In this document: in pieces, positions 8,028-60,902 of the stretch
How positions within the stretch are numbered: position 1 is the first letter of the stretch
Layout of the letters: each line of letters opens with the position of its first letter
Assembly (NCBI GenBank): GCA_041855735.1
Contig: JBHAEV010000154.1
Span: 1 to 60,902 of the forward strand
Direction of reading: 5' to 3'
Source of the DNA: Lachnospiraceae bacterium
GTDB lineage: Bacteria > Bacillota > Clostridia > Lachnospirales > Lachnospiraceae
DNA length: 60,902 nucleotides
Translations under genes and position numbers: made by a program
The notes under the pieces: model-generated
Databases searched by the model: none
The model's input: only the letters and a program-made list of their open reading frames with translations
What the model was told of the DNA's origin: nothing

Positions 8028-8043
8028 TTGCGTTTCCTCCTAC

Positions 8044-8514: not shown

Positions 8515-8658
8515 GTTACTTCCCTCCTTAATATAGTTGCCTTTTTTGAAAAAAGGCGATTAGATCTACGGTACTCGTAAGTTACTCTTACGCCTGTGCC
8601 GAATATATCTTCTGCAACCCACAGAATACATATGGCACCGTATTACCTGTTTTTAAAT

Positions 8659-9078
8659 TTACTTCTTAACCTTAGGTCTCTTCGCACCGTACTTGGAACG
8701 TGCTTGTTTTCTGTTTGCAACACCTGCCGTATCCAGCGTACCGCGGATGATGTGGTATCTTGTACCCGGAAGGTCCTTAACTCTACCCCCGCGAATCAGA
8801 ACCACACTATGCTCCTGCAAATTGTGTCCCTCTCCCGGAATATAGCTGGTTACCTCGATACCGTTTGACAGACGTACTCTGGCAATCTTACGAAGAGCCG
8901 AGTTCGGCTTCTTCGGTGTGGCGGTCTTTACCGCTGTACACACGCCTCTCTTTTGCGGTGCAGAAGCATCGGTCGCTTTCTTGTGCAGAGAGTTGAATCC
9001 CTTTTGAAGCGCCGGTGATGTGGACTTCTTCTCTGAAGTTGCTCTGCCCTTCTTAACTAACTGGTTAAATGTTGGCAT
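8659..9078 (-). CDS. rpsL: 30S ribosomal protein S12
   Basis: [12 protein letters not shown]...[10 protein letters not shown]... 139 aa. SD AAGGAGGA. Confidence 0.97.
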
Positions 9079-9231
9079 TCCTGTTCCTCCTTATGTTTTT
9101 TCTGTGGTTGCTTTCATTTAAGCTTTGCATGACAAAAAACATGCTTTTGCATGCCTGTCTATTATACGCGCAATGATTTTTCGTGTCAAGCTTTATTCCA
9201 TCCCGGAGCGAAACACGCGGAAGTACCGACT

Positions 9232-10338: not shown

Positions 10339-10464
10339 ACCAATTTCCTCTTTCTTCTTGTCGAACTCTTGAGAGATGTATTATAATGCAAAGAGGATAT
10401 AAAATCCAGTGTTTCCGACGTGTTTTACACGAAATCACACAATACGGCAAATCGGAGGACTATT

Positions 10465-11268
10465 ATGGACATTATGATCACCGGCAAATATGCATCCTTT
10501 ACCTGCACCACCACCGGCGCGGAACTTCTCTCATACAAGGACGTTCGGGGAAAAGAATATTTATGGCAAAAAGACCCTGCATTTTGGGCAAAAACTTCGC
10601 CGATTCTCTTTCCGCATATCGGACCCGAGTGCGATCAGCTCGTCATTGACGGCAGTTCCTACCATATGCCGAGGCACGGAATCGTCAAGGACCGGCCGTT
10701 TCAAATCTTGAAAAAGGGGGAAAACACCGTTACATTGTACACGGAAAGCGACGAGGAAACCTTGAAGATGTACCCCTTTGATTTTCAATTCAATGTCAGC
10801 TTCACTCTTCGCAACGAGGAACTGGAAGTCGTGTATACCGTCATCAATCAATCCAAAGTTTCGATGCCGTTCGAAATCGGAGGTCATCCCGCTTTCTTTT
10901 GCCCGATGCAGCCGGGCGAAACATTTTCCGATTACAAGCTGATGTTTTCGGATTTTGATAAGGACGATGTTCTTTTGAATTATCCGATGTTTGACCATGA
11001 TGCCATTCTGTTCGAACATTTTGACTCGCACATTGTCAGGCTCATCAGCACCAAAACCGGTCACGGTCTGGAGTTCCAATTTCCGGACTACGAATCCGTC
11101 GCATTCTGGACACCGATCGGAAAAGAAGCGCCGTTTCTTTGCATTGAGCCCTGGAACGGACTCACGATGGATCAGATTCATGAAACAAATTTTCTGAAAA
11201 AAACCTATATCCAGACTCTGGGGCCGCTTCAAAAAAGAGAGTACCGTTTCTGGTTTAAACCGATTTAA
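10465..11268 (+). CDS. aldose 1-epimerase family protein (LacX-like)
   Basis: The ATG at 10465 is preceded by a GGAGG SD (6-nt spacer). The sequence ...LFPHIGP...HG...GGHPAF... is consistent with the mutarotase fold. Confidence 0.7.
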   Translation: MDIMITGKYASFTCTTTGAELLSYKDVRGKEYLWQKDPAFWAKTSPILFPHIGPECDQLVIDGSSYHMPRHGIVKDRPFQILKKGENTVTLYTESDEETLKMYPFDFQFNVSFTLRNEELEVVYTVINQSKVSMPFEIGGHPAFFCPMQPGETFSDYKLMFSDFDKDDVLLNYPMFDHDAILFEHFDSHIVRLISTKTGHGLEFQFPDYESVAFWTPIGKEAPFLCIEPWNGLTMDQIHETNFLKKTYIQTLGPLQKREYRFWFKPI

Positions 11269-11297
11269 TCGGAATGGATCTTCCTTTATTCTTGTTG

Positions 11298-11331
11298 CAA
11301 ACACCCCGGGCAGTGTCGCCCGGGGTGTTTG
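11298..11331. terminator. bidirectional terminator hairpin between convergent genes
   Basis: Perfect 14-bp stem CAAACACCCCGGGC / GCCCGGGGTGTTTG with a 6-nt loop. Confidence 0.75.
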
Positions 11332-11400
11332 CGTATTCGCCAAAACCTGCACACGATCCGTCTCCTGTCCGGTGACGAATTATCCGGTTTTCTTTCATTG

Positions 11401-11949
11401 TCATGTATTGTGATACTTTCTTGCATATGCCAGAATCCCGGCAACCGTTTTGGAATCCGTCATCTCCCCTTTGTAGATCAATTCCAGCAGATCTTCTACC
11501 GTCCAGCTCTCCACATGGATGACTTCGTCCGCATCCAGATGCTGTACGGAAGGCTGCAGATTTCTTGCGACAAAGATATCAATGGCTTCATTACAGAATG
11601 CCACGGTCGTATTGACCCGAATCAGGAACTCCAGATCATCCGGGGATTCCACTTTTTTTCCGGTTTCTTCCTCCAGCTCACGGAAGGCGCAAATCCTTCT
11701 CGGCTCCTCAATATCATCCACTTTGCCTGCCGGCAGTTCCAAAGTAAAACGATCCAGTGCATTGCGATATTGCCGGACCATCAAAAGCCGTCCGTCATCA
11801 TCCACGGCAACCACTGCCGCCGCACCGTCATGGTGAATAAAATCCCATTTCGTTTCATTGCCGTTGGCAATCACATGATCCTGATAAATCTTAATTACTT
11901 TCCCCGTGTAAACCAGTTCCCTTTTCAGTCTTTTTACCGGAATGTCCAT
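11401..11949 (-). CDS. NUDIX hydrolase (ADP-ribose pyrophosphatase-like)
   Basis: Nudix box GKVDDIEEPRRICAFRELEEETG. I prefer the ATG at 11949 (SD GGAGG, 5-nt spacer) to the upstream GTG at 11967. Confidence 0.8.
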   Translation of the reverse strand: MDIPVKRLKRELVYTGKVIKIYQDHVIANGNETKWDFIHHDGAAAVVAVDDDGRLLMVRQYRNALDRFTLELPAGKVDDIEEPRRICAFRELEEETGKKVESPDDLEFLIRVNTTVAFCNEAIDIFVARNLQPSVQHLDADEVIHVESWTVEDLLELIYKGEMTDSKTVAGILAYARKYHNT

Positions 11950-11993
11950 CTCTTCCTCCTTCAACACGACACCGGTATTCCCGATGTTCTCAC

Positions 11994-13202
11994 CTATTCT
12001 GCAGATGCGCTTCCGCGAACGGCATCCTGATACTCCAGATATGCCAGCAACAGATTCAGACTCGATACCTCTGCATTCACCTTTGCCCGATTGTATTCCA
12101 GCGCACTTTCATTATAGCGAATCCGGGACAACATGCCAAGACGGTATTTCGATTCGGCGGCATTGGCCTTCATCTCACCCGCCTGCAGTGCCGTCTTTTT
12201 GGATTCATAGTCCAGCAGTGCCGTTTTCATGTTTTGATACTTCTTGGTCACATCATTTCGGACATTGCCCTCCATCTGTGCCTCGGAAGCATCTGCCGCT
12301 TCTTTTTTGGTAAAGTTTCGAGATGTCTTCGCCCGTCTGTGTGAAATCAAAGTATAATTGTTTCCGATGGCGGATTTGATGTCCGCTTCCAGATCGACGG
12401 CTTGGATGACATCTCCGTTTACAAAATCTTCCACACGGATATCCATGATTTCGGGTTGTGCATTGACATCCCAGCCGAGCATGGTAATCAAGGTTCTTCG
12501 CATGCTCTCCGCATTCGATCGAAGCGTTTCCAAATCCGCCTTGTTCTTTGCCAGCTCGGAATTGGCGCGGATCGCATCCTGCAAAATGGATGTGCCCACA
12601 TCCACGCCGGTCTTTGAAATCGCAAGCATCTCCTCTCTGATCGCAATTCCCGACTGCAGCAAATCCATCTGTTTTCTGAGGCTCAAATAATTGACCATCA
12701 TGCTTTTCACCGCATGAATGACCTGCCGCTCGCTGTTTCGAAGGCTTTCATTCCCGATGCTGACCTCCCTGCCGAGACTGACTTTCGAACGGTTCAGACT
12801 CTTTACCGTCTGATCCAATGCCTTTTCCTGTGCCGTATATACCCCGAAACTCTCGATATCACCGGCACTCTTTGCATTCTCCGCCAATTCGGAAAGACTT
12901 CTCTGACCGGCTTCCAATTCGGAAATATTCATCGTAATTTCATCGATGTTTGCCCGATAGTCCTTCCACGCGCTTACGACACCCGGATTGAAAAAGTGTA
13001 CCAGAGCATCAATCTCCGCATACTCCAGGCGATTGTCCATATATCTTTGATAGTCCTCTTCGCTGACGCCCATCTTCTGTGCCGGCGTCCGGTTTTGTCC
13101 CATCGGGCCGTCCACAGCGGATGCGGCGGCGACAAACACCGTGCCATTGCTCATCAGCAGCACACAAAGTCCCGCTGCCAGACATTGTTTGATCTTTTTC
13201 AT
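11994..13202 (-). CDS. TolC-like (outer membrane efflux protein family) secreted protein, paralog 1
   Basis: Signal peptide MKKIKQCLAAGLCVLLMSNGTVFVAAASA. Two long coiled-coil OEP-like repeats. The C-terminal ...LNLLLAYLEYQDAVRG is typical of TolC/OprM family ends. Likely start is the ATG at 13202. Confidence 0.7.
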   Translation of the reverse strand: MKKIKQCLAAGLCVLLMSNGTVFVAAASAVDGPMGQNRTPAQKMGVSEEDYQRYMDNRLEYAEIDALVHFFNPGVVSAWKDYRANIDEITMNISELEAGQRSLSELAENAKSAGDIESFGVYTAQEKALDQTVKSLNRSKVSLGREVSIGNESLRNSERQVIHAVKSMMVNYLSLRKQMDLLQSGIAIREEMLAISKTGVDVGTSILQDAIRANSELAKNKADLETLRSNAESMRRTLITMLGWDVNAQPEIMDIRVEDFVNGDVIQAVDLEADIKSAIGNNYTLISHRRAKTSRNFTKKEAADASEAQMEGNVRNDVTKKYQNMKTALLDYESKKTALQAGEMKANAAESKYRLGMLSRIRYNESALEYNRAKVNAEVSSLNLLLAYLEYQDAVRGSASAE

Positions 13203-13223
13203 ATTCACACCGCGCTTTCCGTA

Positions 13224-14420
13224 TTATTCCGTCTTTGCCAGACCGGCAACTGTCCACTCATAATTATTGATTGCAATTCGAAGTGCGAGTTCCGACTGTT
13301 GCAAAGAAATCTTTGCCATGTCATTTGCAATCCTTGCCGATTGCATCTCATAGGTGCTGACCATACCGAGTCTGTGCTTGCCGGAAATATTGGCAAAATT
13401 CACAGCCTGCAATTCGGAATTGTTTTTTGCATGCGTGAAAGCTTCCTGCGCGGCTTTCACACTTTGATAAGCGGTAAGTACCGCATTGGCAATGCCCGCT
13501 TTATTGCTTGCGATGGTATTGTTCAGGCTGTCCTTTTGACTTTGCGATTTGGCATTGGCGAGTTTTTTTTCATTCGCCTTGAGCACATAGTTGTTCTCAA
13601 TCGCCCGTTTGGTATCTTCTTCCACGGAAAAGGACTGTATTTTCTCATCCGGATTGAAATCCGGCAATGCCGTAAATTCCGGATGCGAATCATAGGACCA
13701 GCCGCACATGATCATCAGTTTCTGACGAATGTTTTCCGTTTCCGCCGAAGAACTCAGTACCTCTTTTTGCGCATTCAAAAGACCTTCGTTTGCGTTGAGC
13801 ACATCCAGATTTGTCGCAACACCCGCGCGATATCTGGCATTCGCATTCTGCACATCCAAATCGGCTTTTTCCTCGGAAAGCTTTGCCGCATCCTCGCTCA
13901 ATCTTGCATTTTCCAGATTGATGCGATTGGTCTGTGCAATCTGCACCAGACTCATCTTTGCCTGCTCAAAATTATAATAATTGACATCATAATCTTCCAA
14001 TGAAGTATCCGCCGACTTCCTCAAATTGTCGACCGTCGCCAGAGAGTTTGCCTTGCCGAGCAACGCCTGCGCATAGGTCGGGGAGTCGATGTCCGGTTCC
14101 ACCAGATTTGCCATGATTTCATCCGCCGTCTTATTGTAGCGCTCGCTTGCCGTAGCATTGGTTCTGCCGTACTTTTTCCGAAAATCCATCAGCTCGATAT
14201 TGTTTTTCAGAACCGTTGCATTGTATTCTTCAATCAAACCCTGAATCTCCGTGTATTCCAGGGTATTGTCCCGAAGTTTGTCCCATTCTTCCTGCGTTCT
14301 TGCAAAACCCGGCGCCGCAAAAACCGTATTTGCAAAAACAAGGCTCCCCGCCAAAGTCATTGCCGTCAGCCCGGCAATCACTCTCTTCACATTTCTGTTC
14401 CCAATCCTTACCGTCATCAT
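13224..14420 (-). CDS. TolC-like (outer membrane efflux protein family) secreted protein, paralog 2
   Basis: I prefer the ATG at 14420 (SD AAAGGAAG). Signal peptide ...AGLTAMTLAGSLVFANTVFA-AP. Same two-repeat coiled-coil layout as the downstream paralog. Confidence 0.7.
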   Translation of the reverse strand: MMTVRIGNRNVKRVIAGLTAMTLAGSLVFANTVFAAPGFARTQEEWDKLRDNTLEYTEIQGLIEEYNATVLKNNIELMDFRKKYGRTNATASERYNKTADEIMANLVEPDIDSPTYAQALLGKANSLATVDNLRKSADTSLEDYDVNYYNFEQAKMSLVQIAQTNRINLENARLSEDAAKLSEEKADLDVQNANARYRAGVATNLDVLNANEGLLNAQKEVLSSSAETENIRQKLMIMCGWSYDSHPEFTALPDFNPDEKIQSFSVEEDTKRAIENNYVLKANEKKLANAKSQSQKDSLNNTIASNKAGIANAVLTAYQSVKAAQEAFTHAKNNSELQAVNFANISGKHRLGMVSTYEMQSARIANDMAKISLQQSELALRIAINNYEWTVAGLAKTE

Positions 14421-14452
14421 CTTCACTTCCTTTCCGTTTGCGAAAACGTCCT

Positions 14453-14568
14453 GCCCGAATTTCACTCCTTTTCGTTTTTTGAAATCGCTTCCGCCCGAAC
14501 TTCACTCCTTGTCGGTCTGTGAAATTGCTTCGGGCTGTGAAATCGCTTCCGCCCGAATTTCACTCCTT
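14453..14568 (-). repeat. intercistronic direct/inverted repeat array (3 copies of GCCCGAAYTTCACTCCTT, two extended to 30 nt)
   Basis: Positions 14481-14510 and 14539-14568 are identical 30-mers except for one base. A third 18-nt copy is at 14453-14470. An inverted partial copy is at 14518-14535. Confidence 0.85.
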
Positions 14569-14599
14569 TTTTGCCTGCGAAATATCTTTTGCTCGAACC

Positions 14600-16858
14600 C
14601 TACTTCGGGTTTCGAAAAAACCGGATATTTATTTTAAACACATCGCCTTCCACATCAATCGAAATCTCACCGCCCTGCGCTTCGGTCAGATTCTTCGCAA
14701 TCGCAAGTCCCAGTCCCGAACCCGGAGTATTTCTGGACGTATCCGCTCTTGCAAAACGCTCCAGCAGTTCTTCGGGATTCGATGTGATCTCAATATCGGA
14801 GATATTGGTCAATGTGACATCGACATAGTCCGCGGTTTCCGAAAAAACGATATATGCCCTGCTGCCTTTGAGTGCATATTTTGTAATGTTCACCAGCAAG
14901 TTTTCAAAAATCCGGTATGTCTTTTTGGCATCCAGACTCAGTACACATTTGCCGCCCGGCAATTGCCAGCGAAAATCAATACCCGCCTCTTCGATTTTTT
15001 CATTGTATTCCAGCCTCAATCCCTTTAACAGTCCGACGATGTCCACATCCGCCTTCTCCAGCTTCAATTTCCCCGTACTTGCCAGACTCATTTCAAACAA
15101 ATCATCGATCAAAGACTTAAAGCGCATGGACTTGGCATCCAGGATTTCGATATACTTTCTTCTTTCCTTTGCATCGATGTTTTCATCCTTCAGCAAATTG
15201 ATATACATGATAATGGCAGTCAGCGGTGTTTTTAAATCATGCGACATATTGGTAATCAATTCGGACTTGGATCTCTGACTCTCTCTCTCCTTGTCCACCG
15301 CTTTGATAAATCCGTCATTGATCAGCCTCAATCGCTCATCAAACGGCTCGAACTCGCCGAGGTTTTCATTCACATACACTTTTTTCTTCGGATTGGCTTC
15401 CACCGCCGATTTCTCCTCAAAGAAAAGCTCACCCTTCGCCAATGTGTCCATCCATTTGAGAATTTTCCGAAAATGTTCCTTCTTTCGATTGTAATAATTT
15501 GCAACAATCGCCAGAATAAAGAGCGAATAAATCAGCAATCCGAAAAAATTATGAACACGGAATATCGCCATCAACAACAGCACCAGAAAATTCAAACCGA
15601 TCCATTTTCCGAATTGACGAAATGCGCTGTCGTTCCAGTTTACCTCGATATCGGTTCGAATCACAAATCGATAAATTTCGCCCAGCTTCGTCAAAAACAT
15701 TCCCGTCAAAGTGCGCTCCAGAAAATACCGTTTCGGTCCCAGATGAAAAACGGCACAAAGACTTATGGTCACCCATAAAGTTACTCCCAGCAGGCTCGTC
15801 CACGTCAGAACATTCAGCAAAAAAATCATGGCTTCGGACAGAATCTTGAAAATTCCCGCTCGAAACAGAAAATCACTCAGATTGTTGTCCAAAGTTGTCA
15901 AAATCAGATTCTTCGGGAAAACGGATCCCGAAAAAGCCAATGCGGCAATCGTTGCGAGTACAAGAACCTCCAACGGCACATTCGTCTTGTCCTGCCGGTC
16001 CGAGTAGTCTTTGAGAAAGGACAATCCCACCCCGAGTATGACCGTGAAAATAACCGCGATATAGAGAAGATTGAAAAAATAGGTGCTTCGGTCGGTATAT
16101 ATCACACTGTCCGGGCCGAACATCTGCCCGGAATTGAAATAATACACAAACTCCAGATTCGTCGGCGGTTTAAAGCGTAATTCGAATTCATGTTTGATAT
16201 CTCTCTTGCTGCTCGACAGATAGGCAAGATAGTCGCCCAACGGATCAAATCGGTGATATTTTTCCAAAGACTTTCTCAGTGTTTCTTCCGTCTCACCTGT
16301 GATATTTCCGTTCAATTTCAACTCTTTTACCGTCATTTTCCCGGCATTGTCAAAAACCAGCACCAGCTTGGACAAAGCCTCCGTTTCCGTAAAATCCAGG
16401 CCCTTCTCCCGGACAATCACTTCGTCCGTTTCGGAAGAAATCACCTCATAAGACAGAACATTCCTGTATTTGTCAAAACTTCGCTTCCATCCGTTGCTGC
16501 GAACAAAAAACTCTTCAATCATATCCAAATACAGTTCGTATTCGTCCTCATATTGCTTTAAAACATTTTCGTCCACCTTGACATCCACATAGGCTTCGAT
16601 ATTGGTCAGAAGCTTTCCTTCTTCCTGCTCCCGGACCTGCTTGGTCAATGTCATCGTGGAATTCATCAGTACCGATGCCAGCTCTTCTGCCTGCCTTTGC
16701 TCCAGCTGCGCCTGATTTTCCGGTTTGCTTTGATACTCTCTGCTCATCCGATCGAGGGTCGGATAAGACAATGTAAAAAACAGCGCAAAAGCAAGAATTG
16801 CCGCCACGGCAATACCTAAGAATATCTTATATTTGCTTTTCAATCTTATATCCAACAC
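14600..16858 (-). CDS. sensor histidine kinase (large extracytoplasmic domain plus multi-TM block)
   Basis: H-box NMSHDLKTPLTAI and HATPase G-boxes (...GSGLGLAIAK...). One N-terminal TM helix, about 240 aa of extracytoplasmic sequence, then about 6 TM helices. The start is a non-ATG codon (GTG 16858 or TTG 16855) overlapping the regulator gene. Confidence 0.85.
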   Translation of the reverse strand: MLDIRLKSKYKIFLGIAVAAILAFALFFTLSYPTLDRMSREYQSKPENQAQLEQRQAEELASVLMNSTMTLTKQVREQEEGKLLTNIEAYVDVKVDENVLKQYEDEYELYLDMIEEFFVRSNGWKRSFDKYRNVLSYEVISSETDEVIVREKGLDFTETEALSKLVLVFDNAGKMTVKELKLNGNITGETEETLRKSLEKYHRFDPLGDYLAYLSSSKRDIKHEFELRFKPPTNLEFVYYFNSGQMFGPDSVIYTDRSTYFFNLLYIAVIFTVILGVGLSFLKDYSDRQDKTNVPLEVLVLATIAALAFSGSVFPKNLILTTLDNNLSDFLFRAGIFKILSEAMIFLLNVLTWTSLLGVTLWVTISLCAVFHLGPKRYFLERTLTGMFLTKLGEIYRFVIRTDIEVNWNDSAFRQFGKWIGLNFLVLLLMAIFRVHNFFGLLIYSLFILAIVANYYNRKKEHFRKILKWMDTLAKGELFFEEKSAVEANPKKKVYVNENLGEFEPFDERLRLINDGFIKAVDKERESQRSKSELITNMSHDLKTPLTAIIMYINLLKDENIDAKERRKYIEILDAKSMRFKSLIDDLFEMSLASTGKLKLEKADVDIVGLLKGLRLEYNEKIEEAGIDFRWQLPGGKCVLSLDAKKTYRIFENLLVNITKYALKGSRAYIVFSETADYVDVTLTNISDIEITSNPEELLERFARADTSRNTPGSGLGLAIAKNLTEAQGGEISIDVEGDVFKINIRFFRNPK

Positions 16859-17549
16859 CCCATACCACCTTCAGATATTTCGGATTCTTCGGATCTGCCT
16901 CAATCTTTTCCCGGATATTGCGGATATGTACCATCACCGTATCGGTATTGATCGCCATCTCCTGCCATACACGTTCATAAATCTCCTCCGCCGAGAAAAC
17001 CCTGCCCGGATTTTCCATGAGCAAAAGCAGAATTTTAAATTCCATCGGCGTGAGCTTAACCAATCGGTCATCCACCCTGCACTCCACCATTTCTTCGTTC
17101 AGCATAAGCCCGCCGACCGTATAAATCTTTTGCCCTCTGGATTCCGCCTGTGAGGATCCGGCTTCCAGTTTTTCTTTAAATCGTTGATAACGCTTCAGCT
17201 GCGCTCCCACTCTTGCCAGCAGTTCCATCGGGGTAAACGGCTTTGTGACATAGTCGTCCGCTCCCATGTTCAACCCCATGATTTTGTCAATCTCTTCCGA
17301 CTTCGCCGAAAGAAATATAATCGGAAAATCGTGTTTTTCACGAAGTTTCACGGTCAATGTGATCCCATCCATCCTCGGCATCATCACGTCCAGAATCGCC
17401 AGATCCACTTCCTGCTCCCGCAAAACTTCGAGGGCCTTGATTCCGTCTTCAGCCTGAAACACTTCATAGCCTCTCCCTTTTAACAGAATCGCCACGCCTT
17501 CCCGGATTTCCGTATCATCTTCGACCAAAAGGATTCTTCCTTCTTCCAT
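16827..17549 (-). CDS. OmpR-family response regulator
   Basis: The ATG at 17549 follows an AAGGAGG SD. Receiver domain ILLVEDDTEIRE...DLAILDVMMPRMDG...ADDYVTKPF. The wHTH ends VWGVGYKI. Confidence 0.9.
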   Translation of the reverse strand: MEEGRILLVEDDTEIREGVAILLKGRGYEVFQAEDGIKALEVLREQEVDLAILDVMMPRMDGITLTVKLREKHDFPIIFLSAKSEEIDKIMGLNMGADDYVTKPFTPMELLARVGAQLKRYQRFKEKLEAGSSQAESRGQKIYTVGGLMLNEEMVECRVDDRLVKLTPMEFKILLLLMENPGRVFSAEEIYERVWQEMAINTDTVMVHIRNIREKIEADPKNPKYLKVVWGVGYKIEKQI

Positions 17550-17685
17550 CTTGCCTCCTTGCTGCTGTCTTCTCATTTGAATGCTTCGGTTTTGTTCATT
17601 GTACCAGATAAAAATAAAACTGAATCTTAAAATTAAAAAAGATTTTCTAAATCTTGCAGATTCTCCCACCAACAAAAAATGTCGC

Positions 17686-17713
17686 AAAAAGCGCCGGTCA
17701 TACAGACCCGCGC
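17686..17713 (-). terminator. rho-independent terminator after the DUF1905 gene
   Basis: Minus strand reads GCGCGGGTC-TGTAT-GACCGGCGC (one mismatch) followed by TTTTTGCG. Confidence 0.6.
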
Positions 17714-17720
17714 AAATGTT

Positions 17721-18005
17721 TCAAACAATCGGAGTGATCACAACATGAATCCGGTCACCCACGCCCTTGCCCATTAATGTTTGAATGTCTTTTCTTACAC
17801 CGATAATATAGCAGATGGAACCGTCTTCATTCTTAACGCCCATATTCACAATGCTTCCATCGTACGGAATTTCGTTGAATTTTGCATGAACTTTCAATCT
17901 CCCCTTACCGAACTCTTCACGAATGTCAAAGGGGATTCTGATAAACGAACCGCCTTTCTCCTTTACCGGCTCAATCACCGCATCAAATTCGTATGTTTCC
18001 TTCAT
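17721..18005 (-). CDS. DUF1905 domain protein
   Basis: 94 aa. ...GGSFIRIPFDIREEFGKGRLKVHAKFNEIPYDGSIVNMG... is typical of DUF1905. The start overlaps the upstream stop (ATGA). Confidence 0.7.
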   Translation of the reverse strand: MKETYEFDAVIEPVKEKGGSFIRIPFDIREEFGKGRLKVHAKFNEIPYDGSIVNMGVKNEDGSICYIIGVRKDIQTLMGKGVGDRIHVVITPIV

Positions 18006-54069: not shown

Positions 54070-55161
54070 ATGAGGAAAATTATTTTAACCGGCGACAGAC
54101 CCACCGGCAAGTTGCATCTTGGTCACTATGTCGGAAGTCTGCATCGCAGAGTGCAGATGCAGGATTCCGGAGAATTCGATGAAATTTTTATTATGATCGC
54201 CGATGCGCAGGCGCTCACGGACAATTTTGACAATCCGGAGAAGATCCGTCAAAGCATTGTGGAAGTTGCGCTGGATTATCTCAGCGCCGGAATCGATCCG
54301 AAAAAAACCACCATTTTTATTCAATCCGAGATTTCCGAGCTGACCGAGCTGACATTCTACTATATGGATCTTGTCACGGTGTCCCGATTGTATCGCAATC
54401 CGACCGTTAAGGCGGAAATCGGACTTCGAAACTTCGAAACCAGCATTCCGGTCGGATTTTTGACCTATCCGATTTCCCAGGCCGCGGATATCACCGCATT
54501 CAAGGCGACCTTGGTGCCGGTCGGCGATGACCAGTTGCCGATGATCGAGCAGACCAGAGAAATCGTCCGCAAATTCAATTCCACCTATGCCGAAGTTCTG
54601 GTGGAACCGGATGCCTCGATTCCGGAGGACAGTGCCAGCCGAAGACTTCCGGGTACGGACGGAAAGTCAAAGATGAGCAAATCTCTGGGCAATTGCATCT
54701 ACCTCTCCGACAATTCCAAGGATGTGTGGGAAAAGGTTCGCAGCATGTACACCGACCCGAATCACATTCAGGTCAGCGACCCGGGACAGGTGGAAGGCAA
54801 TGCCGTATTTACATATCTGGATGCCTTTTGCGAGCCGCATCATTTTGAAAAATTCCTGCCGGAATACAAGGATTTGGACGAACTGAAAGCCCATTATACC
54901 AAAGGGGGACTGGGCGACATGAAAGTGAAGAAATTCCTCTATGCCATTTTGGAGGAGGTCATGGAACCGATCCGCCAAAGAAGAGCCGAATACGAAAAAG
55001 ATATTCCGGGAGTATTCCGCATTCTGAAAGAGGGCACCGAAATTGCCAGAGCCAAAGCCGCTCAAACACTTCGGGAGGTAAAGCAGGCCATGAAGATCAA
55101 CTATTTCGAGGATGAAGAATTGATTCGTTCTCTGTCCGAGAAATATCAAAAAAACGAATAG
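54070..55161 (+). CDS. trpS: tryptophan--tRNA ligase (long, type-2-like form)
   Basis: [18 protein letters not shown] (HIGH-like) and KMSKS motifs. 363 aa. SD GAGGAGAG. Confidence 0.9.
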
Positions 55162-55171
55162 AGAGGGATGT

Positions 55172-55651
55172 ATGGAAAAAATAGCCAGCTTTACCGTAAA
55201 TCATCTGACATTGCTGCCCGGAATCTATGTGTCCCGAAAGGACTTTTTGGGTGCGGAATGTGTGACGACCTTTGACATCCGAATGACCGCTCCGAACCGG
55301 GAACCGGTGATGAATACTGCCCAGATGCATGCCATCGAACACCTCGGTGCGACCTATCTTCGCAATCATAAACAATTCGGATCAAAAATCATCTACTTCG
55401 GACCGATGGGATGCCGTACCGGTTTCTATCTGCTGCTTCACGGCGATTATAAGTCCGGGGACATTGTGGATCTGGTGTATGCCATGTTTTCCTTTATCCG
55501 TAATTTTGAAGGGGATATTCCGGGAGCCGTGCCGAGAGACTGCGGCAATTGCCACGATATGAATCTGCCGATGGCAAAGTACATCGCCGAAAAATTTATA
55601 ACGGATACTCTGGAGCGGATGGACGAAAGCCGATTGGTGTATCCGGATTGA
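55172..55651 (+). CDS. luxS: S-ribosylhomocysteine lyase
   Basis: HAIEH metal motif, conserved GCRTGFY and ...CGN... motifs. 159 aa. Confidence 0.92.
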   Translation: MEKIASFTVNHLTLLPGIYVSRKDFLGAECVTTFDIRMTAPNREPVMNTAQMHAIEHLGATYLRNHKQFGSKIIYFGPMGCRTGFYLLLHGDYKSGDIVDLVYAMFSFIRNFEGDIPGAVPRDCGNCHDMNLPMAKYIAEKFITDTLERMDESRLVYPD

Positions 55652-55682: not shown

Positions 55683-56573
55683 ATGAAAGGAATTGTGCTT
55701 GCCGGAGGCAGCGGCACCCGATTGTATCCGCTGACCATGGTGACCTCCAAACAACTTTTACCGATTTATGATAAACCGATGATTTATTACCCGATTTCCG
55801 TACTCATGCAGGCAGGCATTCGTGAAATCCTGATCATCTCCACCCCGGAAGACACCCCGAGATTTAGGGAGCTGCTCGGAAACGGAAGCCAGTTCGGTCT
55901 GGAGCTGAGCTATGCCGTTCAGCCAAAGCCCGAAGGACTGGCACAGGCTTTCATCATCGGTGCGGATTTTGTCGGCGACGACCCGGTTGCCATGATTCTC
56001 GGCGACAATATCTTCCAGGGACAGGGATTGTCCGAACATCTTTTGGATGCGGCGAAGAAACAGGTCGGCGCAACCGTATTCGGATACTATGTGGACGATC
56101 CGGAGCGTTTCGGCATCGTGGAATTCAACAGCGAAGGAAGGGCGATTTCCATCGAGGAAAAGCCGGAAAAACCGAAGAGCAATTACTGCGTGACCGGTTT
56201 GTACTTCTACGACAACCGCGTTGTGGAATATGCCAGAAATCTGAAGCCGTCCAAACGAGGAGAACTGGAGATCACGGATCTGAACCGCATCTACCTGGAT
56301 GCTGGCGAATTGGACGTGAAAGTTCTGGGGCAGGGCTTTACATGGCTTGACACCGGTACCCATGAAAGTCTGGTCGAAGCCACCAATTTCGTTTACACAT
56401 TGGAAACCCATCAGCACCGCAAGATTGCCTGTCTGGAAGAGATCGCCTATGTCAACGGCTGGATCACGAAAGAGGATGTGGAAAAGTCCATCGAAGTGTT
56501 TAAAAAGAACCAGTACGGGAAATACCTCAAGGATGTACTGGACGGAAAGTATCTGGACAAGATAAAAAAATAA
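55683..56573 (+). CDS. rfbA: glucose-1-phosphate thymidylyltransferase
   Basis: [18 protein letters not shown]...[16 protein letters not shown]. 296 aa. Confidence 0.93.
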
Positions 56574-56770
56574 TACAATGGAAACTTCTTTTTTGGTGCG
56601 GTCCATCGCAGATAAAAGCAGTGGTCGATAACCATATTGGAAAATATATCCCTGCAGAACTTATGAACCCGACTATAAACGGCTGATGATCGAAGCCTCG
56701 ATTGCAAAGTCCCCCCCTCATGCTTGCAGAGCAAAAAAAGGGGGGAATCAAGCAATCGGAAGGATATGCT

Positions 56771-57694
56771 CTACACCATCGTCAGTCGATTCAACAAATC
56801 TGAAACTATACCCGGATCCTCCATCAGCGATATTCCAAAACATTTCTTCCCTGCATCCTTTATGGATGCTCCAATATGATAAGCTGTTTTTCTATCCAGG
56901 ATAAGGAACCTGTCATGGAACACATGCGTCCTTTTGACCGTCAAAGTCGGGTACTGCGCATTAAAGGTAGCCTCATCCTTTTTTGTGAGCTGTGCACTCG
57001 CATATGTATAAATCTTCACAGCTGTGCCTTTATTCTTCTTCAACAAAATGTTCAAAGTGTCAATGTCAACATAGCCGTCAATCAAGATAATCTCATTCTG
57101 CGCTTTTTTTATGATATCTGTGATCAGACGAAAAGCATCATATATCTGACCATCAAAGAATACCTTTTGTTTTGCTTCCGCACGATCTTCAATATACCGG
57201 AAAACTTTGTCAAATTTCTCATCTGTGCTTCTCTGATACTCCAGCTGCTTCAATTCTATGTTGCTGACTTTCTCAAACAGCAGCGTATTATTAGCGATAA
57301 ACCTTCGAATTTCAACAAATGTATTCATTATCCGAATTGATACCTGAATCGCCACATCGCTCCTAAGAACCCCGGAAAGCATTGCGATTCCTTGCTCTGT
57401 AAACATGTATGGTCTATATCTTCTGCCGCCTCTCCCATTTGAGGTTGCAATCTGTGACCTCAAAGCATCAAATTCATCTTTTGTAAGCTGGAATCTGAAA
57501 TTCTCCGGAAAACGTTCTATATTTCTGTTTACAGCTTGATTTAAGGCCTTTGTTTCAACTTGGTAAAGCATCGCAAGATCTCTATCGAGCATAACTTGTT
57601 GCCCACGAACCACATATATTAGACTCCGAATATCCTTGATATCTGCCATTACAGGAATACTCTCTGTCGATTGCATCCGCTCATTTTTCGCCAT
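56771..57694 (-). CDS. ORF6N (KilA-N-type) DNA-binding domain protein with conserved C-terminal HDRFLILD...HIGASIKDAGKK domain
   Basis: The N-terminus IYVVRGQQVMLDRDLAMLYQVETKALNQAVNRNIERFPENFRFQLT...RSQIATSNGRGGRRYRPYMFTEQGIAMLS is the ORF6N signature. I prefer the ATG at 57694 (SD GGAGGTG, 5-nt spacer). An in-frame upstream ATG at 57751 exists. Confidence 0.75.
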   Translation of the reverse strand: MAKNERMQSTESIPVMADIKDIRSLIYVVRGQQVMLDRDLAMLYQVETKALNQAVNRNIERFPENFRFQLTKDEFDALRSQIATSNGRGGRRYRPYMFTEQGIAMLSGVLRSDVAIQVSIRIMNTFVEIRRFIANNTLLFEKVSNIELKQLEYQRSTDEKFDKVFRYIEDRAEAKQKVFFDGQIYDAFRLITDIIKKAQNEIILIDGYVDIDTLNILLKKNKGTAVKIYTYASAQLTKKDEATFNAQYPTLTVKRTHVFHDRFLILDRKTAYHIGASIKDAGKKCFGISLMEDPGIVSDLLNRLTMV

Positions 57695-57707
57695 TTGCAC
57701 CTCCACG

Positions 57708-57734
57708 TTTGAGGTCACAAATTGTGACTTCAAA
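57708..57734. promoter_or_regulatory. 27-nt palindrome TTTGAGGTCACAAATTGTGACTTCAAA just upstream of the ORF6N SD
   Basis: Near-perfect dyad centred on GTCACAA-A-TTGTGAC. A related copy lies inside the CDS at 57438-57464. Confidence 0.6.
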
Positions 57735-57811
57735 TAATTTCTAAAGTTCATTTTTCTCTATATGAATAATTGTATCTATCAACAATGCCCAGATCAAGAT
57801 TATTCCTAATC

Positions 57812-57842
57812 CGGTCAATACCAAATTCCGTGGTATTGACCG
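57812..57842 (-). terminator. perfect 11-bp hairpin between the GTPase-like gene and the ORF6N gene
   Basis: CGGTCAATACC-N9-GGTATTGACCG, 43 nt after the stop at 57885. There is no clear T-tract. Confidence 0.4.
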
Positions 57843-57884
57843 ATTCATATGGTTACAAAGTCCGGGTTGTACGCAAGATTGAGA

Positions 57885-60020
57885 CTATATGATAATAAAT
57901 GATTTGTTAACCATATCCGTCATTAACTGATTTAATTCAGCAACGAGGATTCTTGCAAAATTCGTACTTCCAAAAAACAAGCAAAAATATTCTTGCAACT
58001 TTCTCATAGCGCCATCATAGCCAGGAGTGCCATTATAAATATTTATAAGTTCCCGCCTCAATTCCGGATTACCAAATGACAGGTTATAAGCAACCCTATC
58101 CATCAGCGAAGCAAATCTTGAAACATCATTGAAGAACTCTTTATAGAATTCATATAGTCGCTGCAACGCAATATTCCTTTCTCCCAAAGCCGGATTAAGC
58201 CCAACCATAATCCCATTGCTTCCAAGAAGAGCTTTTGCTAACTCTGTAAGTCCATCATCGTTAAGGTTGTTTGCTGTGAACTTCACTGCACTCTTTTCAT
58301 CAAACTTGGTAAATGAATCAAAGGTATTGGATAATATTCTCTTGAGAAGCCCTTTCATATTTATAGAAAAGTTTCCAAACTCCGATGCTCTTGTTGTATG
58401 TCCTAATCCAATAGCAAGATTATTCCAATAACAAGCTACACTTCTGCCATGTATTCTAGGTGTTCTATCACTGATGACATAACCGTTTACTATGTTTTTA
58501 TCCTTAGAAAGGATATGCTTCATGGCATCAATTTCAGGTTTCATCATATCGGGATCAATTTCAACCTGTATAGCCGGTTTATCCGGATCAATAGCGGTAA
58601 CAAAAATCGGACTTTTTACTCCAGCCGGCAAACTACTGCTTAAAGTTTTCATTGAATAATCAACTATTTTCTCGAACAAACCTTCCGGTTCAAAATTCCG
58701 CTTTCTATTGTCGCCTGCCAACGCTTTTAAAACATAGCTGTCCTTCAGGTATCTCATTGAAATCCAATCCACTTCTTCTTTTGGAAGATCTTCAGCATAC
58801 AATTCTACCATCTTTTCGATCTCTGTTAACACACTTTGTATGTTCTTTGAGTAGCTGTCTTCATCAATGTACAATTTCCCTGCATTATGCTTATTGATAA
58901 GGTTCTCTACCATCCTATCCGCCTTTGAAAAAAGAACATACACAGGAATATTTAAATTTCTTTTATTCAGTTCATCCTTCTTTTCTGCAAGTGCTTTACA
59001 ACAGTCTTTTAATATATCGTCTCGCTCATCAAGACTCATTAAAAATAGAATCGTGTCTGCTTTACAATTTAGCGCTGCTTCCAATGAGTCTTTTGTTGTT
59101 TCTGCATCCGTTCCTTTCTGAGTAAGTCCCATTGTATCTCTAATACAAAACCTGAAAGGAAGCTCCGGCGAGTTAGTTTTTGCAATTTCAATTAGTTCTT
59201 GACGAGGTCTACACGATATTGAAATATGCTCAATTACCAAACTATAAGGTGCAAGTGGATCAAATATAGTCTTTAAAACATGACCGCCATCGCCACTATC
59301 ACCTAGATCATATTTCAGTATTTTCTGTCCAAGTATTTCATCCCCAAGCTTATCTACTAAATCTTTCTCTACGATCTCTCCGATCTTATTTAGCCATTTA
59401 ACATAATCGGATTTAATATCATCCGGCGTTTCCTCAAACATCTCCTCCAAAATCAACTCTCTTATCTCCTGAAGCTTCACCTTCTTACTCTTGAGGGTAA
59501 TTTTTCGTTCCTTTACTTTATCCTCAAATCCATGATTCAAAATATAGTTAAGAACAGGATCCAGTGCATTCAAAAGATCATTTAAGGAAATCGCACATTT
59601 TATGTTTTTAAGATGATAATGTGCCTCTTCTGGTTCAAGAATTTGCTCAAATACTTTATTATCAAATGCAGCGAGTATCTCTTTTGCATCACAATCATAC
59701 TTTCCAATTAAATCCGTTAGGACGGAAAGAATCGCTATGTGGATGTCTTTACCTGAATAATCCTTCTTGAAAATCTGGATTGCAAAAGCTCCGGCATTTT
59801 CAATCCTCTCATCAAAGCAAAATTCACATGGTATAATTGTAGTTTGGCTCTTATCTCCAATTCCAATTTGCATAAACGGAATGAGTCTGTGATTTAATAA
59901 TAGATAAATTAGCGTACTTTTTCCCGAGCCTGATGGTGCAACAACCACAAGTTGTGGTGCTGAACTCTTTCTCATAAGAGCAGATTCTGCTGTAATACCA
60001 TTGTTTTGTTTTATTTTCAT
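57885..60020 (-). CDS. orphan 711-aa P-loop GTPase-like protein (dynamin/TRAFAC-like motifs, function unknown)
   Basis: Strong SD AAAGGAGA. G1 is APSGSGKST (aa 28-36). A switch-I-like DKSQTTIIP lies around aa 56-64. G3 is DTMG (aa 295-298). G4 is SKAD (aa 365-368). The gene is AT-rich. Confidence 0.75.
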   Translation of the reverse strand: MKIKQNNGITAESALMRKSSAPQLVVVAPSGSGKSTLIYLLLNHRLIPFMQIGIGDKSQTTIIPCEFCFDERIENAGAFAIQIFKKDYSGKDIHIAILSVLTDLIGKYDCDAKEILAAFDNKVFEQILEPEEAHYHLKNIKCAISLNDLLNALDPVLNYILNHGFEDKVKERKITLKSKKVKLQEIRELILEEMFEETPDDIKSDYVKWLNKIGEIVEKDLVDKLGDEILGQKILKYDLGDSGDGGHVLKTIFDPLAPYSLVIEHISISCRPRQELIEIAKTNSPELPFRFCIRDTMGLTQKGTDAETTKDSLEAALNCKADTILFLMSLDERDDILKDCCKALAEKKDELNKRNLNIPVYVLFSKADRMVENLINKHNAGKLYIDEDSYSKNIQSVLTEIEKMVELYAEDLPKEEVDWISMRYLKDSYVLKALAGDNRKRNFEPEGLFEKIVDYSMKTLSSSLPAGVKSPIFVTAIDPDKPAIQVEIDPDMMKPEIDAMKHILSKDKNIVNGYVISDRTPRIHGRSVACYWNNLAIGLGHTTRASEFGNFSINMKGLLKRILSNTFDSFTKFDEKSAVKFTANNLNDDGLTELAKALLGSNGIMVGLNPALGERNIALQRLYEFYKEFFNDVSRFASLMDRVAYNLSFGNPELRRELINIYNGTPGYDGAMRKLQEYFCLFFGSTNFARILVAELNQLMTDMVNKSFIII

Positions 60021-60037
60021 TTTCTATCTCCTTTTCG

Positions 60038-60073
60038 ATATTTTTTCTTCTATTTCTATATTTTTTCTTCTAT
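60038..60073. repeat. direct repeat ATATTTTTTCTTCTAT x2 (20-nt period) immediately upstream of the GTPase-like gene SD
   Basis: Exact 16-mers at 60038-60053 and 60058-60073. Confidence 0.85.
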
Positions 60074-60103
60074 AATTTACAAGCTTTCATAATTGTTCAG
60101 ACA

Positions 60104-60183
60104 TAAAAATACCCCCTTGTTAAATGATTTTCAGCAAACCAATCCAACAAGAGGGTACAAAAAAACTGTGCTTTCATGCACAG
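60104..60183 (-). terminator. two tandem minus-strand rho-independent terminators
   Basis: Terminator 1 is CTGTGC-ATGAAA-GCACAG followed by TTTTTTTG (60159-60183). Terminator 2 is CCCTCTTGTT-N24-AACAAGGGGG followed by TATTTTTAT (60104-60155). Confidence 0.7.
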
Positions 60184-60310
60184 CAACATTCGTATCTCAC
60201 GTCCGTCGCTCACATATTTTAACGGAATTCGTTAAAATAATATAAGGATCTGACTTTCAACTCATCGCCCCGATGGAACGCATCTCGTTGGTCAGTTTTC
60301 TGTATTCTTC
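60159..60310 (-). ncRNA. candidate ~150-nt structured small RNA (unassigned family)
   Basis: It is bounded by the promoter at 60317-60345 and the terminators at 60104-60183. It contains the hairpins CTGACCAAC...GTTGAAAGTCAG and TATTTTAACG-N5-CGTTAAAATA (60215-60239). I see no ORF with a credible SD. Confidence 0.25.
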
Positions 60311-60316
60311 TGTTAT

Positions 60317-60345
60317 ACGATATCAAAGATTCATCCTTATGTCAA
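60317..60345 (-). promoter_or_regulatory. candidate sigmaA promoter TTGACA-17-TATCGT with A/T-rich UP-like tract
   Basis: On the minus strand the -35 is at 60340-60345 and the -10 at 60317-60322. It is preceded by AAAATAAAAAATAAAAAAAGAAAA. Confidence 0.4.
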
Positions 60346-60642
60346 TATCATTTTCTTTTTTTATTTTTTATTTTATACCACCTATACCTAGGGTTTAACA
60401 CTATATTGTTTCATAGTTGATTTCATATTGGTTTATCGAAAGGGGCATCAAATTATCCTAATACGACAGCCCCTTTCACTTGTCAAACTAATCACTGTGT
60501 GAACCCGTATGGGAGAGCTTTTCTTTGCGAATGAAGTGCCACGACATCATCCGAAAGGGAGGTTTTCAAACCCTCGCTTCATTTCCGGTTTGTAATCCTT
60601 TTTGAACTGCGAGGTGACTATTACAAGATAACATATAGTGTG

Positions 60643-60902
60643 CTACAACTTTAGTTCTACAATCCCTTTTTGCTTTTCGCTTTCCTTTAAATCAATCAAT
60701 CGCTGATTGGAGCTTCCTCTGAACTTCAGACCGATATCATACAATTCTCCGATAAACTCTCCGTCCACCAAAACATCGATGTAGGAAAGCATTTCCCTTG
60801 TCACCTCACAGTTGGCTCTCGCACCGGTTTGAAAATCCGCCGGATAGGTATAACCCGTGTAACACCAAATGTTTTTCTGCGGACAGGCTGCCTTCACCTT
60901 TC
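60643..60902 (-). CDS. nrdG: anaerobic ribonucleoside-triphosphate reductase activating protein, C-terminal part (5' end outside the window)
   Basis: ...NIWCYTGYTY...YIDVLVDGEFI...LKFRGSSNQRLIDL is the conserved NrdG C-terminus. The ORF runs off the window edge. Confidence 0.8.
   Translation of the reverse strand, partial: KVKAACPQKNIWCYTGYTYPADFQTGARANCEVTREMLSYIDVLVDGEFIGELYDIGLKFRGSSNQRLIDLKESEKQKGIVELKL

Follow-up and report, generated by a model that had tools for sequence, protein, structure and literature searches.

In a 60,902-nucleotide (nt) stretch of DNA from a Lachnospiraceae bacterium (GenBank assembly GCA_041855735.1, contig JBHAEV010000154.1, positions 1 to 60,902), hereafter referred to as the window, a gene for a large GTPase is preceded by a structured RNA leader. 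The locus is best explained as a self-contained, horizontally mobile, single-gene module, composed of a soluble GTPase of 711 amino acids (aa) and a dedicated 5' leader. The protein belongs to a previously unnamed family of large GTPases, and its predicted structure identifies it as a TRAFAC GTPase in which a dynamin-like G domain is combined with two domains that have no detectable relatives. The interpretation preferred here, to which an even chance is assigned, is that of a single-gene conflict or defence GTPase that is kept off by its own leader.

Large GTPases, dynamin-like ones among them, play a central part in the cell-autonomous immunity of eukaryotes, as exemplified by Mx, GBP, and IRG, and to our knowledge only a few immune cases of large GTPases exist in bacteria (DynA, Eleos). 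The present locus contributes a compact, single-gene family that is specific to Firmicutes, common in metagenomes of gut Lachnospiraceae, and new in its domain architecture, with a helical domain inside the G domain and a C-terminal domain of its own. The locus also joins a large-GTPase family to an RNA leader without an Rfam match, and this leader constitutes a tractable regulatory puzzle that could reveal RNA-level triggering of a bacterial immune gene.

The GTPase family, its motifs and its predicted fold

The GTPase is encoded at 57885..60020 on the minus strand (-), to which the coordinates of the gene and of its leader all refer, and this extent, with an ATG start and the stop codon included, is supported by the list of open reading frames (ORFs), the homologs, and the structural model. 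The gene possesses its own Shine-Dalgarno (SD) sequence, AAAGGAG, located 7 nt 5' of the ATG (60018..60034 with the start codon). In an alignment of 28 diverse homologs sharing 36-79% identity (A1), the residues G33, K34, T60, T61, D295-G298, Q301, K366, D368, S421, and R423 are invariant, and because the G-motif residues are conserved throughout, the G1-G4 and G5-like matches are family-defining rather than products of chance. The G1 motif or P-loop, APSGSGKST (aa 28-36; 59913..59939), containing G33 and K34, follows the strand at aa 23-27. The two threonines of G2 in switch I (59838..59843) stand directly before the strand at aa 65-70 in the model, in which strand polarity is not readable, and the switch I loop itself is flexible, with a predicted local distance difference test (pLDDT) value below 50 at aa 54-58. 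The G3 or Walker B motif DTMG (aa 295-298; 59127..59138) is found in the context FCIRDTMG at the C-terminal end of strand 290-295, with D295, T296, M297, and G298 all unchanged among the homologs and the invariant Q301 shortly after it. The G4 motif at the end of strand 360-365 (58917..58928) reads SKAD at aa 365-368 in the window, TKAD in the consensus, and [S/T]K[A/V/P]D across the family; as a guanine-specificity motif, it makes the protein appear guanine-specific. Additionally, the tripeptide S421-M-R423 (58752..58760), situated past the last core strand (417-419), is putatively assigned as G5. A preliminary description of the window had placed G1, DTMG, and SKAD at the same residues, and all three were found in place, with G33/K34, the whole of DTMG, and K366/D368, respectively, invariant in the 28 homologs.

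The most conserved motif other than the G motifs lies near the C-terminus at aa 525-556 (58353..58448). It reads HGRSV...GLGHTT.A..YGNFSINMK in the window and H(G)RSV..Y...L..G.G..T.A..YGNFxINMK in its family form, with 13 invariant positions in A1 (S527, V528, Y531, G538, G540, T543, G549, N550, F551, I553, N554, M555, and K556). The motif is partly located in a flexible loop, since pLDDT is low at aa 546-550 in the models of both the whole protein and the separate domain, and it is retained in P0129, a member of a distant subfamily.

The AlphaFold2 model, built with A1, is a confident single body with a pLDDT of 88.5 and a predicted template modelling score (pTM) of 0.88. Strand beta1 (aa 23-27) leads into the P-loop and helix alpha1, which reaches to about aa 41, and two strands (aa 65-70 and 78-85) follow switch I. 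Between the beta2/beta3 hairpin and the G3 strand, a helical insertion occupies aa 86-262 (59235..59765; helices at 91-231 by DSSP); it comprises approximately 175 aa, is acidic with an isoelectric point of 4.9, and has no Pfam match. The insertion is succeeded by a strand and a helix (aa 263-270 and 274-283), the strand with DTMG at its end (290-295), a helix, a strand, and another helix (306-317, 323-329, and 334-353), the strand with SKAD at its end (360-365), helices reaching aa 408, and strand 417-419, after which come S-M-R and helices to about aa 463. In the model, the strands at 65-70, 78-85, and 263-270, together with helix 274-283, form an extended G-domain sheet, and the G domain is predicted to end at about aa 463. 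The C-terminal domain (aa 464-711; 57888..58631), predicted to consist of a small alpha/beta part and a five-helix bundle, was modelled separately, and its 248 aa alone reached a pLDDT of 85 and a pTM of 0.83. It has no Pfam match, and a Foldseek comparison of this domain with the PDB gave nothing significant (best E 0.17). The preliminary description had recognized a helical insertion of about 230 aa (aa 65-290) and had regarded residues 370-711 as free of motifs. The helical nature of the insertion is borne out by the model, whereas its extent shrinks to aa 86-262; similarly, residues 464-711 do lack relatives, whereas the G domain extends to about aa 463 and the motif at aa 525-556 is conserved.

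When the whole model was compared with the PDB, the first five ranks were taken by the dynamin-like proteins SynDLP (9em9_A, E 9.3e-6; 7zw6_A, E 1.0e-5) and IniA (6j72, E 2.8e-4) with a probability of 1.0, and below them appeared an IRG-like GTPase, G-alpha, GIMAP, elongation factors, and Ras/Rab. Every PDB match with E below about 0.25 is a GTPase or a GTPase-containing assembly, and in the viral library BFVD, a giant-virus dynamin-family protein stands on top. Four of five features of the TRAFAC class are present, namely G1, G3, G4, and the overall fold.

Scans of the GTPase against Pfam, NCBIfam, and PADLOC yielded nothing above threshold, and sequence searches of the PDB with the single sequence and with a profile produced matches at the level of the P-loop only. 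A search of 5.8 billion clustered proteins recovered 97 homolog clusters of about 714 aa with 36-79% identity. Pfam found a faint MMR_HSR1 domain in one member and an unrelated PF02687 in a 565-aa protein covering 54% of the query, and otherwise nothing in these clusters; weak MMR_HSR1 and Ras hits were also recorded for family members. Homologs that bear names are labelled "hypothetical" or generically "GTPase domain-containing". With a TRAFAC fold, homologs devoid of functional annotation, and sub-threshold scores in all three profile collections, the initial proposal of a novel or highly divergent TRAFAC/dynamin-like family outside the well-annotated ones is upheld.

An exhaustive hidden Markov model search of 1.84 billion representatives found 130 proteins at E <= 1e-3, and 30 loci were present in 185,579 species, each represented by one genome. 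The carriers include Lachnospiraceae, other Clostridia, Paenibacillus, Lysinibacillus, and Desulfosporosinus, as well as one metagenome-assembled genome (MAG) labelled Bacteroides; this MAG aside, the family is restricted to Bacillota. One homolog, annotated as hypothetical, is borne by a Paenibacillus peoriae plasmid. Some copies appear to be damaged. In a Lachnospiraceae genome (L024), the GTPase is split into ORFs of 81 aa and 617 aa (9953-10198 and 10271-12124), an apparent frameshift or pseudogene, and at the metagenome loci L046 and L053, where the match starts only at query residues 123 and 293, the copies may be disrupted.

Architecture and conservation of the RNA leader

When the 700 nt preceding the gene were compared across all loci and 32 non-redundant leaders were read (alignment A4), one architecture emerged, which in the window corresponds to a leader of about 290 nt at 60021-60345 upstream of the GTPase. 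A promoter scan located a sigma-70 promoter at 60317..60345, composed of the -35 element TTGACA (60340-60345), a spacer of 17 nt, and TG-n-TATCGT (-10 at 60317-60322); a near-consensus -35, a 17-nt spacer, and a -10 at a constant distance from the RNA core are found in at least 28 of the 32 loci. The 5' domain (60241..60303), delineated by covariation, RNAalifold, and a covariance model termed R1, begins with a 5' tail (60292-60303) and contains the helix P1 (60287-60295 with 60250-60261), which encloses an invariant internal loop AAGAU/UGAG, and the hairpin P2 (60266-60281). A long variable hairpin, P3 (60209..60246), taken from the minimum free energy (MFE) fold, is present in every clade with differing sequence, and a conserved linker of the GUAUGCGGC type comes after it. 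T1, an intrinsic terminator (60159..60184) identified by a terminator scan and RNAalifold, consists of GCUGUGC-loop-GCACAG followed by U7. Further downstream lies the long hairpin H2 (60111..60156; RNAalifold and pair counts), the 3' arm of which is an SD sequence (AAGGGGG) and the loop of which (60132-60142) pairs with the 5' tail of the leader; a U-run and then an ATG succeed it.

The fate of this ATG distinguishes two clades. In clade B, it is the start codon of the GTPase, whereas in clade A, to which the window belongs, it opens a mini-ORF of 2-5 codons and the GTPase has its own SD 60-300 nt further. In the window, the mini-ORF encodes MSEQL* (60087..60104), as defined by comparison of the 32 leaders, and the ATG past H2 is kept in 10 of 10 clade A leaders (MSG*, MDG*, MS*, and MSEQL*). 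It may be a remnant left by an insertion that separated the leader from the gene, or it may function as a leader peptide or as a site for ribosome loading. The promoter scan detected no further sigma-70-like promoter between H2 and the start codon in the window. The interval from the mini-ORF to the GTPase SD holds a window-specific tandem duplication of 2 x 20 nt (60033-60073), perfect to 95% and A-rich on the coding strand; it is the only repeat of this kind, and ToxI-like tandem repeats were therefore rejected as a feature of the leader, the conserved part of which contains none.

The conservation of the upstream DNA extends between protein clades at only about 40% identity. RNAalifold recovered T1 and H2 on the full alignment and, independently, P1, P2, and T1 on clade B alone. 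For P1, P2, T1, and H2 together, 90.4% of the alignment cells are paired, as opposed to 81.7% in shuffled alignments (reached in 0 of 500) and 31-45% in slid controls, with compensatory changes in 19 of 31 pairs; T1 alone is paired in 97% of cells (compensatory changes in 4 of 6 pairs) and H2 in 96%. The pairing between the 5' tail and the H2 loop, measured on a structure-blind MAFFT alignment, is formed in 92.8% of cells, compared with 77.5% in shuffled alignments (0 of 500) and 26-50% in slid ones, with 6 of 9 pairs showing compensatory changes and a covariation score of 0.50 versus 0.22. In an alignment-free calculation, the mean energy of cognate tail-loop duplexes is -13.8 kcal/mol for clade B and -8.0 kcal/mol for clade A, as against about -4 kcal/mol for cross-clade combinations. 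Folding of the whole leader is considerably more stable than that of shuffles, with z-scores of -5.9 for the window and -5.4 for L009, and even in the two most divergent loci, L033 and L040 (protein identity about 30%), P1, P2, T1, an SD hairpin, and complementarity of tail and loop are preserved while the sequences themselves differ. The MFE folds offer an alternative to the tail-loop pairing by joining the A-rich 5' tail to the U-run after T1, a pairing that represents generic A/U complementarity. An antiterminator formed by GUAUGCGG with the 5' arm and loop of T1 was also considered and rejected, since its positions are mostly invariant or show one-sided changes and there is no covariation support; part of this segment belongs to P3.

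Rfam 15 gave no match at gathering score in the whole window and none to the leader at E <= 1 in 56500-60902, where a single sub-threshold sucC hit is unrelated and falls inside the neighbouring gene. Literature searches found no description of the leader. A motif-first scan of metagenomes, in which the leader pattern was used without any protein data, found 14 loci, and in all 13 that could be evaluated, a GTPase of the family lies downstream, with its start about 200 nt past the pattern; in the loci recovered, the leader is thus found only before this GTPase family. The pattern had no hits in the viral collection IMG/VR, and as tblastn matches were also lacking in 50,697 phage records, a phage origin of the GTPase was rejected. 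The covariance model R1 of the 5' domain scores a single copy in the window at 56 bits, this sequence having been included when the model was built, and recovers all held-out leaders at E <= 2e-6. In an Intestinibacillus MAG (L022), it finds a leader (8012-8075) about 1.9 kb upstream of the GTPase, with a 426-aa ORF (8322-9602) between them. This ORF is probably an insertion sequence (IS) element, because it recurs in another locus (L037), and the GTPase is uncoupled from its leader there. On the simpler leaders of the distant subfamily (L055-L058), R1 detected nothing beyond local hits at E 0.75-2; two of them contain a P2-like hairpin whose loop is similar, and the homology of these leaders to the main one is suggestive only. 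Small upstream "ORFs" with a common peptide string in L026 and L034 were discarded as read-through of the RNA leader rather than genes.

Genomic neighbourhood, proposed mechanism and rival explanations

When 520 neighbour ORFs from 38 loci (34 non-redundant) were clustered all-against-all, no conserved partner emerged, and in the 34 non-redundant loci the GTPase is a standalone gene with long intergenic gaps. At least 11 of these 34 loci contain known defence genes at a distance of no more than 5 kb, and any enrichment is to be taken as qualitative. In this survey of homolog neighbourhoods, which had been proposed at the outset, defence genes thus occur near a part of the loci and no partner gene is shared. 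Hachiman, BREX, PDC-S05, restriction-modification (R-M), and DndFGH are among the defence types near family members. For example, one locus carries type I R-M and an AbiJ-kinase, another type I R-M and Mrr, and yet another AAA_15/AAA_21 ATPases with an integrase and IS66, while other loci feature type I methyltransferases, DndFGH, HamB, DUF499, a type IIG-like R-M gene, and a MADS-like ATPase. The distant subfamily represented by P0129 is likewise standalone and stands beside type III-like R-M, LlaJI, BREX, and CBASS genes; defence genes are present within 5 kb at four of its four loci, and the subfamily also occurs in prophage-like modules. In a further distant relative, P0164 (1003 aa, truncated at the contig end), an N-terminal GT4-conflict domain (PF20706, 3e-65) is fused to the GTPase. 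The GT4-conflict domain is a predicted effector on NTPase switches in counter-invader systems (PMC8195603); that study discusses AP-GTPase, AIG/GIMAP, and septin-like GTPases and does not mention the present family. Judged from its domain composition, the P0164 fusion appears to be a Rosetta-stone link to such counter-invader systems.

Two members of the distant subfamily (L055 and L058, ~10500-18000) share a downstream mobile-element module encoding small sigma-70 region-4 proteins, a DUF2800 PD-(D/E)XK protein, an Enc34-like single-stranded DNA-binding protein, a family A DNA polymerase, and a VapE-like primase/helicase, which suggests that a family of phage-like elements carries the GTPase as cargo, always at one position.

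In the window, the gene directly downstream of the GTPase (56771-57751, minus strand) matches PDC-S05, a PADLOC candidate single-gene defence system, at 6.6e-128. Its protein has an N-terminal ORF6N/KilA-N-like domain (Pfam, 2.1e-36) and a weak DrmC/PLD-like hit at the C-terminus, and the gap of 133 nt to the GTPase contains a promoter-like site of its own. PDC-S05 was rejected as a partner of the GTPase, given that the adjacency is unique to the window, and is regarded as a neighbour in a small defence islet. This low-GC islet (~56650-60640) holds only PDC-S05 and the GTPase and lies between housekeeping genes, with names inferred from translations: at lower coordinates it is bordered by trpS (54070-55161), luxS (55172-55651), and rmlA (55683-56573), and at higher coordinates by an nrdG-like 3' end (60643-60897). 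The GC content of the GTPase and its neighbour is 0.37-0.42 (GTPase 0.37) versus about 0.47 in the flanks, and the islet resembles a small hotspot of integration.

In one sublineage of clade A, a 69-aa ORF (MVYELMDRLVLGKKYQLQEIYDLIEDYC...) is located between the leader and the GTPase and ends about 20 nt before the GTPase start (L005-L008, 7771-7980; L002, 7773-7982; L003, 5490-5699; L010, 9750-9959). It has no Pfam match, persists in L015 only as a degenerate remnant, and is lacking in the window, L001, and L011-L014. Since it is confined to this sublineage, it was rejected as a conserved partner and is treated as optional; it could be an optional accessory or regulatory protein.

Under the preferred interpretation, most transcripts would by default end at T1 or at the second terminator-like hairpin H2, which would also sequester the ribosome-binding site, and pairing of the transcript 5' end with the H2 loop would lock the OFF state, much as long-range locks do in type I toxin mRNAs. 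Read-through and translation would be permitted by a signal, proposed to be infection-related, to which the conserved P1/P2 domain responds. The GTPase would then bind GTP, self-associate through its G domain in the way of dynamin-family proteins, and use its helical and C-terminal domains to act against either the invader or the infected cell, as an anti-phage or abortive-infection-type conflict protein. Such dedicated, multilayered repression by RNA points to a product that would harm the cell, and this fits an effector of the abortive-infection type.

Several observations weigh against this interpretation. At the level of the RNA, the tail-loop duplex of the window is the weakest of the set (-6.9 kcal/mol, z -1.3), and outer P1 and the tail-loop pairing need the same four nucleotides, so that the two are mutually exclusive and possibly form a switch. 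In the clade of the window, H2 does not mask the GTPase SD and instead precedes the 5-codon mini-ORF, and it can consequently act there only as a terminator. As for the genomic context, defence genes are recognized near only about one-third of loci under partial annotation, the association with mobile elements could by itself yield defence-rich neighbourhoods, the tblastn search of phage records returned no homolog, and no PADLOC family matches the GTPase even at E <= 1 (PADLOC-DB 2.0.0, which is assumed to hold models of Eleos LeoA and LeoBC). Regarding the protein, Dynamin_N of Pfam reaches 13.5 bits (E 0.076) relative to a cutoff of 27 bits and covers only aa 279-356, from G3 to G4; global TM-scores to dynamin-like proteins are only 0.21-0.32, because the domain arrangement differs; and the C-terminal domain finds the MxA stalk (3ljb) only weakly by Foldseek (E 0.24, probability 0.11), which is not a significant stalk match. 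A hydrophobic segment that might serve as a paddle is absent, the maximum Kyte-Doolittle mean over 19 residues being 1.43 within the beta1/P-loop core, and amphipathic membrane binding is conceivable. As to whether the insertion forms a stalk or a paddle, a question raised with the preliminary description, the model shows the insertion as entirely helical, and the protein has no hydrophobic paddle. Owing to these scores and absences, the term "dynamin-like" applies to the G domain only. Finally, the trigger and the effector activity of the proposed mechanism are wholly inferred.

The role of the leader admits a more ambitious variant, in which it is a sensor or a ribonucleoprotein partner, that is, a new class of infection-sensing riboswitch or attenuator, or an abundant small RNA that binds the GTPase. 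This variant is considered unlikely. Candidate signals for a sensor would be a nucleotide messenger, a phage protein or RNA, or altered RNA polymerase or RNase activity; if it were true, a structured RNA and a dynamin-like GTPase would make up an unrecognized two-component immune module in Bacillota.

A comparably low likelihood is attributed to an addiction module akin to toxin-antitoxin systems of type I or type III, with an RNA antitoxin, a GTPase toxin, and mobile-element maintenance as its primary role. In such a module, an abundant RNA of about 150 nt ending at T1 would act in trans and silence a toxic GTPase, either by pairing through its 5' end with the H2 loop of the rarer read-through mRNAs or by binding the GTPase, and loss of this short-lived RNA would free the toxin; the idea overlaps with the single-gene defence interpretation in that it could serve abortive infection. 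An abundant short RNA is indeed predicted, since a near-consensus promoter leads into a strong terminator at every locus, and the covarying complementarity between the 5' tail and the H2 loop, the order of promoter, RNA, terminator, and gene, which is reminiscent of type III ToxIN, the plasmid copy, and the integrases, IS elements, and prophage modules adjoining other copies are all compatible with it. However, the conserved leader has no tandem antitoxin repeats, the protein is a GTPase and neither an endoribonuclease nor a small membrane peptide, and with RNA and mRNA on one promoter and strand, differential decay must be assumed. Furthermore, the interrupted gene in L024 and the gene split from its leader in L022 indicate that the arrangement can be lost or uncoupled.

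Less probable still is a housekeeping or stress GTPase, such as a DynA-like membrane repair protein or a ribosome or division factor, controlled by an ordinary riboswitch or protein-dependent attenuator. The leader does follow the classic Firmicutes layout of an aptamer-like domain and then a terminator, and bacterial dynamin-like proteins, DynA among them, are best known for membrane maintenance (PMC8844932, PMC12998192). Nevertheless, a distribution as patchy as 30 of 185,579 species and 130 representatives, a GC content below that of the flanks, the absence of a conserved neighbourhood, the defence and mobile-element contexts, the relative fused to GT4-conflict, and the lack of a hydrophobic membrane-binding segment all speak against such a role.

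An ATPase of the ABC/SMC/Rad50 or another P-loop type, with a coiled-coil insertion and fortuitous DxxG and [S/T]KxD matches, is scarcely credible and, in its ABC form, largely refuted: its Walker A, GPSGSGKST, is ABC-like, weak profile hits to AAA_22, AAA_29, ABC_tran, and DUF87 are restricted to that motif, and SMC/Rad50 proteins typically have a long helical insertion separating their Walker A and Walker B motifs, but DTMG, Q301, and [S/T]KxD are invariant family-wide, neither an ABC signature motif nor an hhhhDE Walker B is seen, and the ABC or AAA fold that the preliminary description had kept in view did not appear, as none of the 50 Foldseek PDB matches listed, which include dozens of GTPases, and none of the leading viral-library matches is an ABC, SMC, or AAA protein.

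Comparison with known systems

By the tests applied, the locus belongs neither to Dynamin_N nor to Eleos, the ABC ATPases, the type III toxin-antitoxin systems, or any Rfam family. Among proteins, the bacterial dynamin-like proteins (SynDLP, IniA, BDLP, and DynA) share with the present family a large GTPase with G1-G4, an extended G-domain sheet, and helical domains beside the G domain, and they provide its best structural matches. They differ in that the main helical domain of the present family is inside the G domain rather than flanking it, and in that the family has no Dynamin_N membership, no stalk or neck match, and no hydrophobic paddle. We know of no counterpart of the dedicated RNA leader among bacterial dynamin-like proteins. 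DynA has been linked to phage defence (PMC8844932).

With regard to RNA-controlled genes, ToxIN and the type I toxin mRNAs (hok, tisB, and aapA1) would be analogous in combining a promoter, a non-coding RNA, an intrinsic terminator, and a potentially harmful gene, as well as in an SD held in a hairpin and long-range pairing of the transcript 5' end. The present locus differs from them by the lack of tandem RNA repeats and of an antisense gene, and by a product that is a 711-aa GTPase. Firmicutes riboswitches and attenuators likewise feature a multi-helix 5' domain with invariant junction or loop nucleotides, followed by a terminator and SD sequestration, and the highly significant folding energy of the leader is a further likeness. 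Unlike them, the leader has no Rfam match, contains two tandem terminator-like hairpins, shows covariation between its 5' end and the hairpin loop that pairs with it, precedes a single gene family in the loci recovered, and permits no antiterminator to be demonstrated.

Eleos systems are mostly proteobacterial. Their dynamin-like GTPases sit in defence islands and protect against phage, which is the likeness to the present family, whereas Eleos is a multi-gene system and the GTPase described here is standalone, without a conserved neighbour in 34 loci. Eleos, formerly "Dynamins" and comprising LeoA/LeoBC, has been described as an anti-phage system (Millman et al. 2022, bioRxiv 10.1101/2022.05.11.491447). 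The conflict systems built on NTPase switches (Kaur, Burroughs, Iyer, Aravind; PMC8195603) resemble the family in the layout of P0164, with GT4-conflict N-terminal to the GTPase, and in their patchy, mobile distribution, and differ from it in that the protein of the window has no recognizable effector domain. The closest known counterparts of the locus are the bacterial dynamin-like proteins at the level of proteins, DynA and Eleos at the level of systems, and the NTPase-switch-plus-effector conflict systems in architectural logic.

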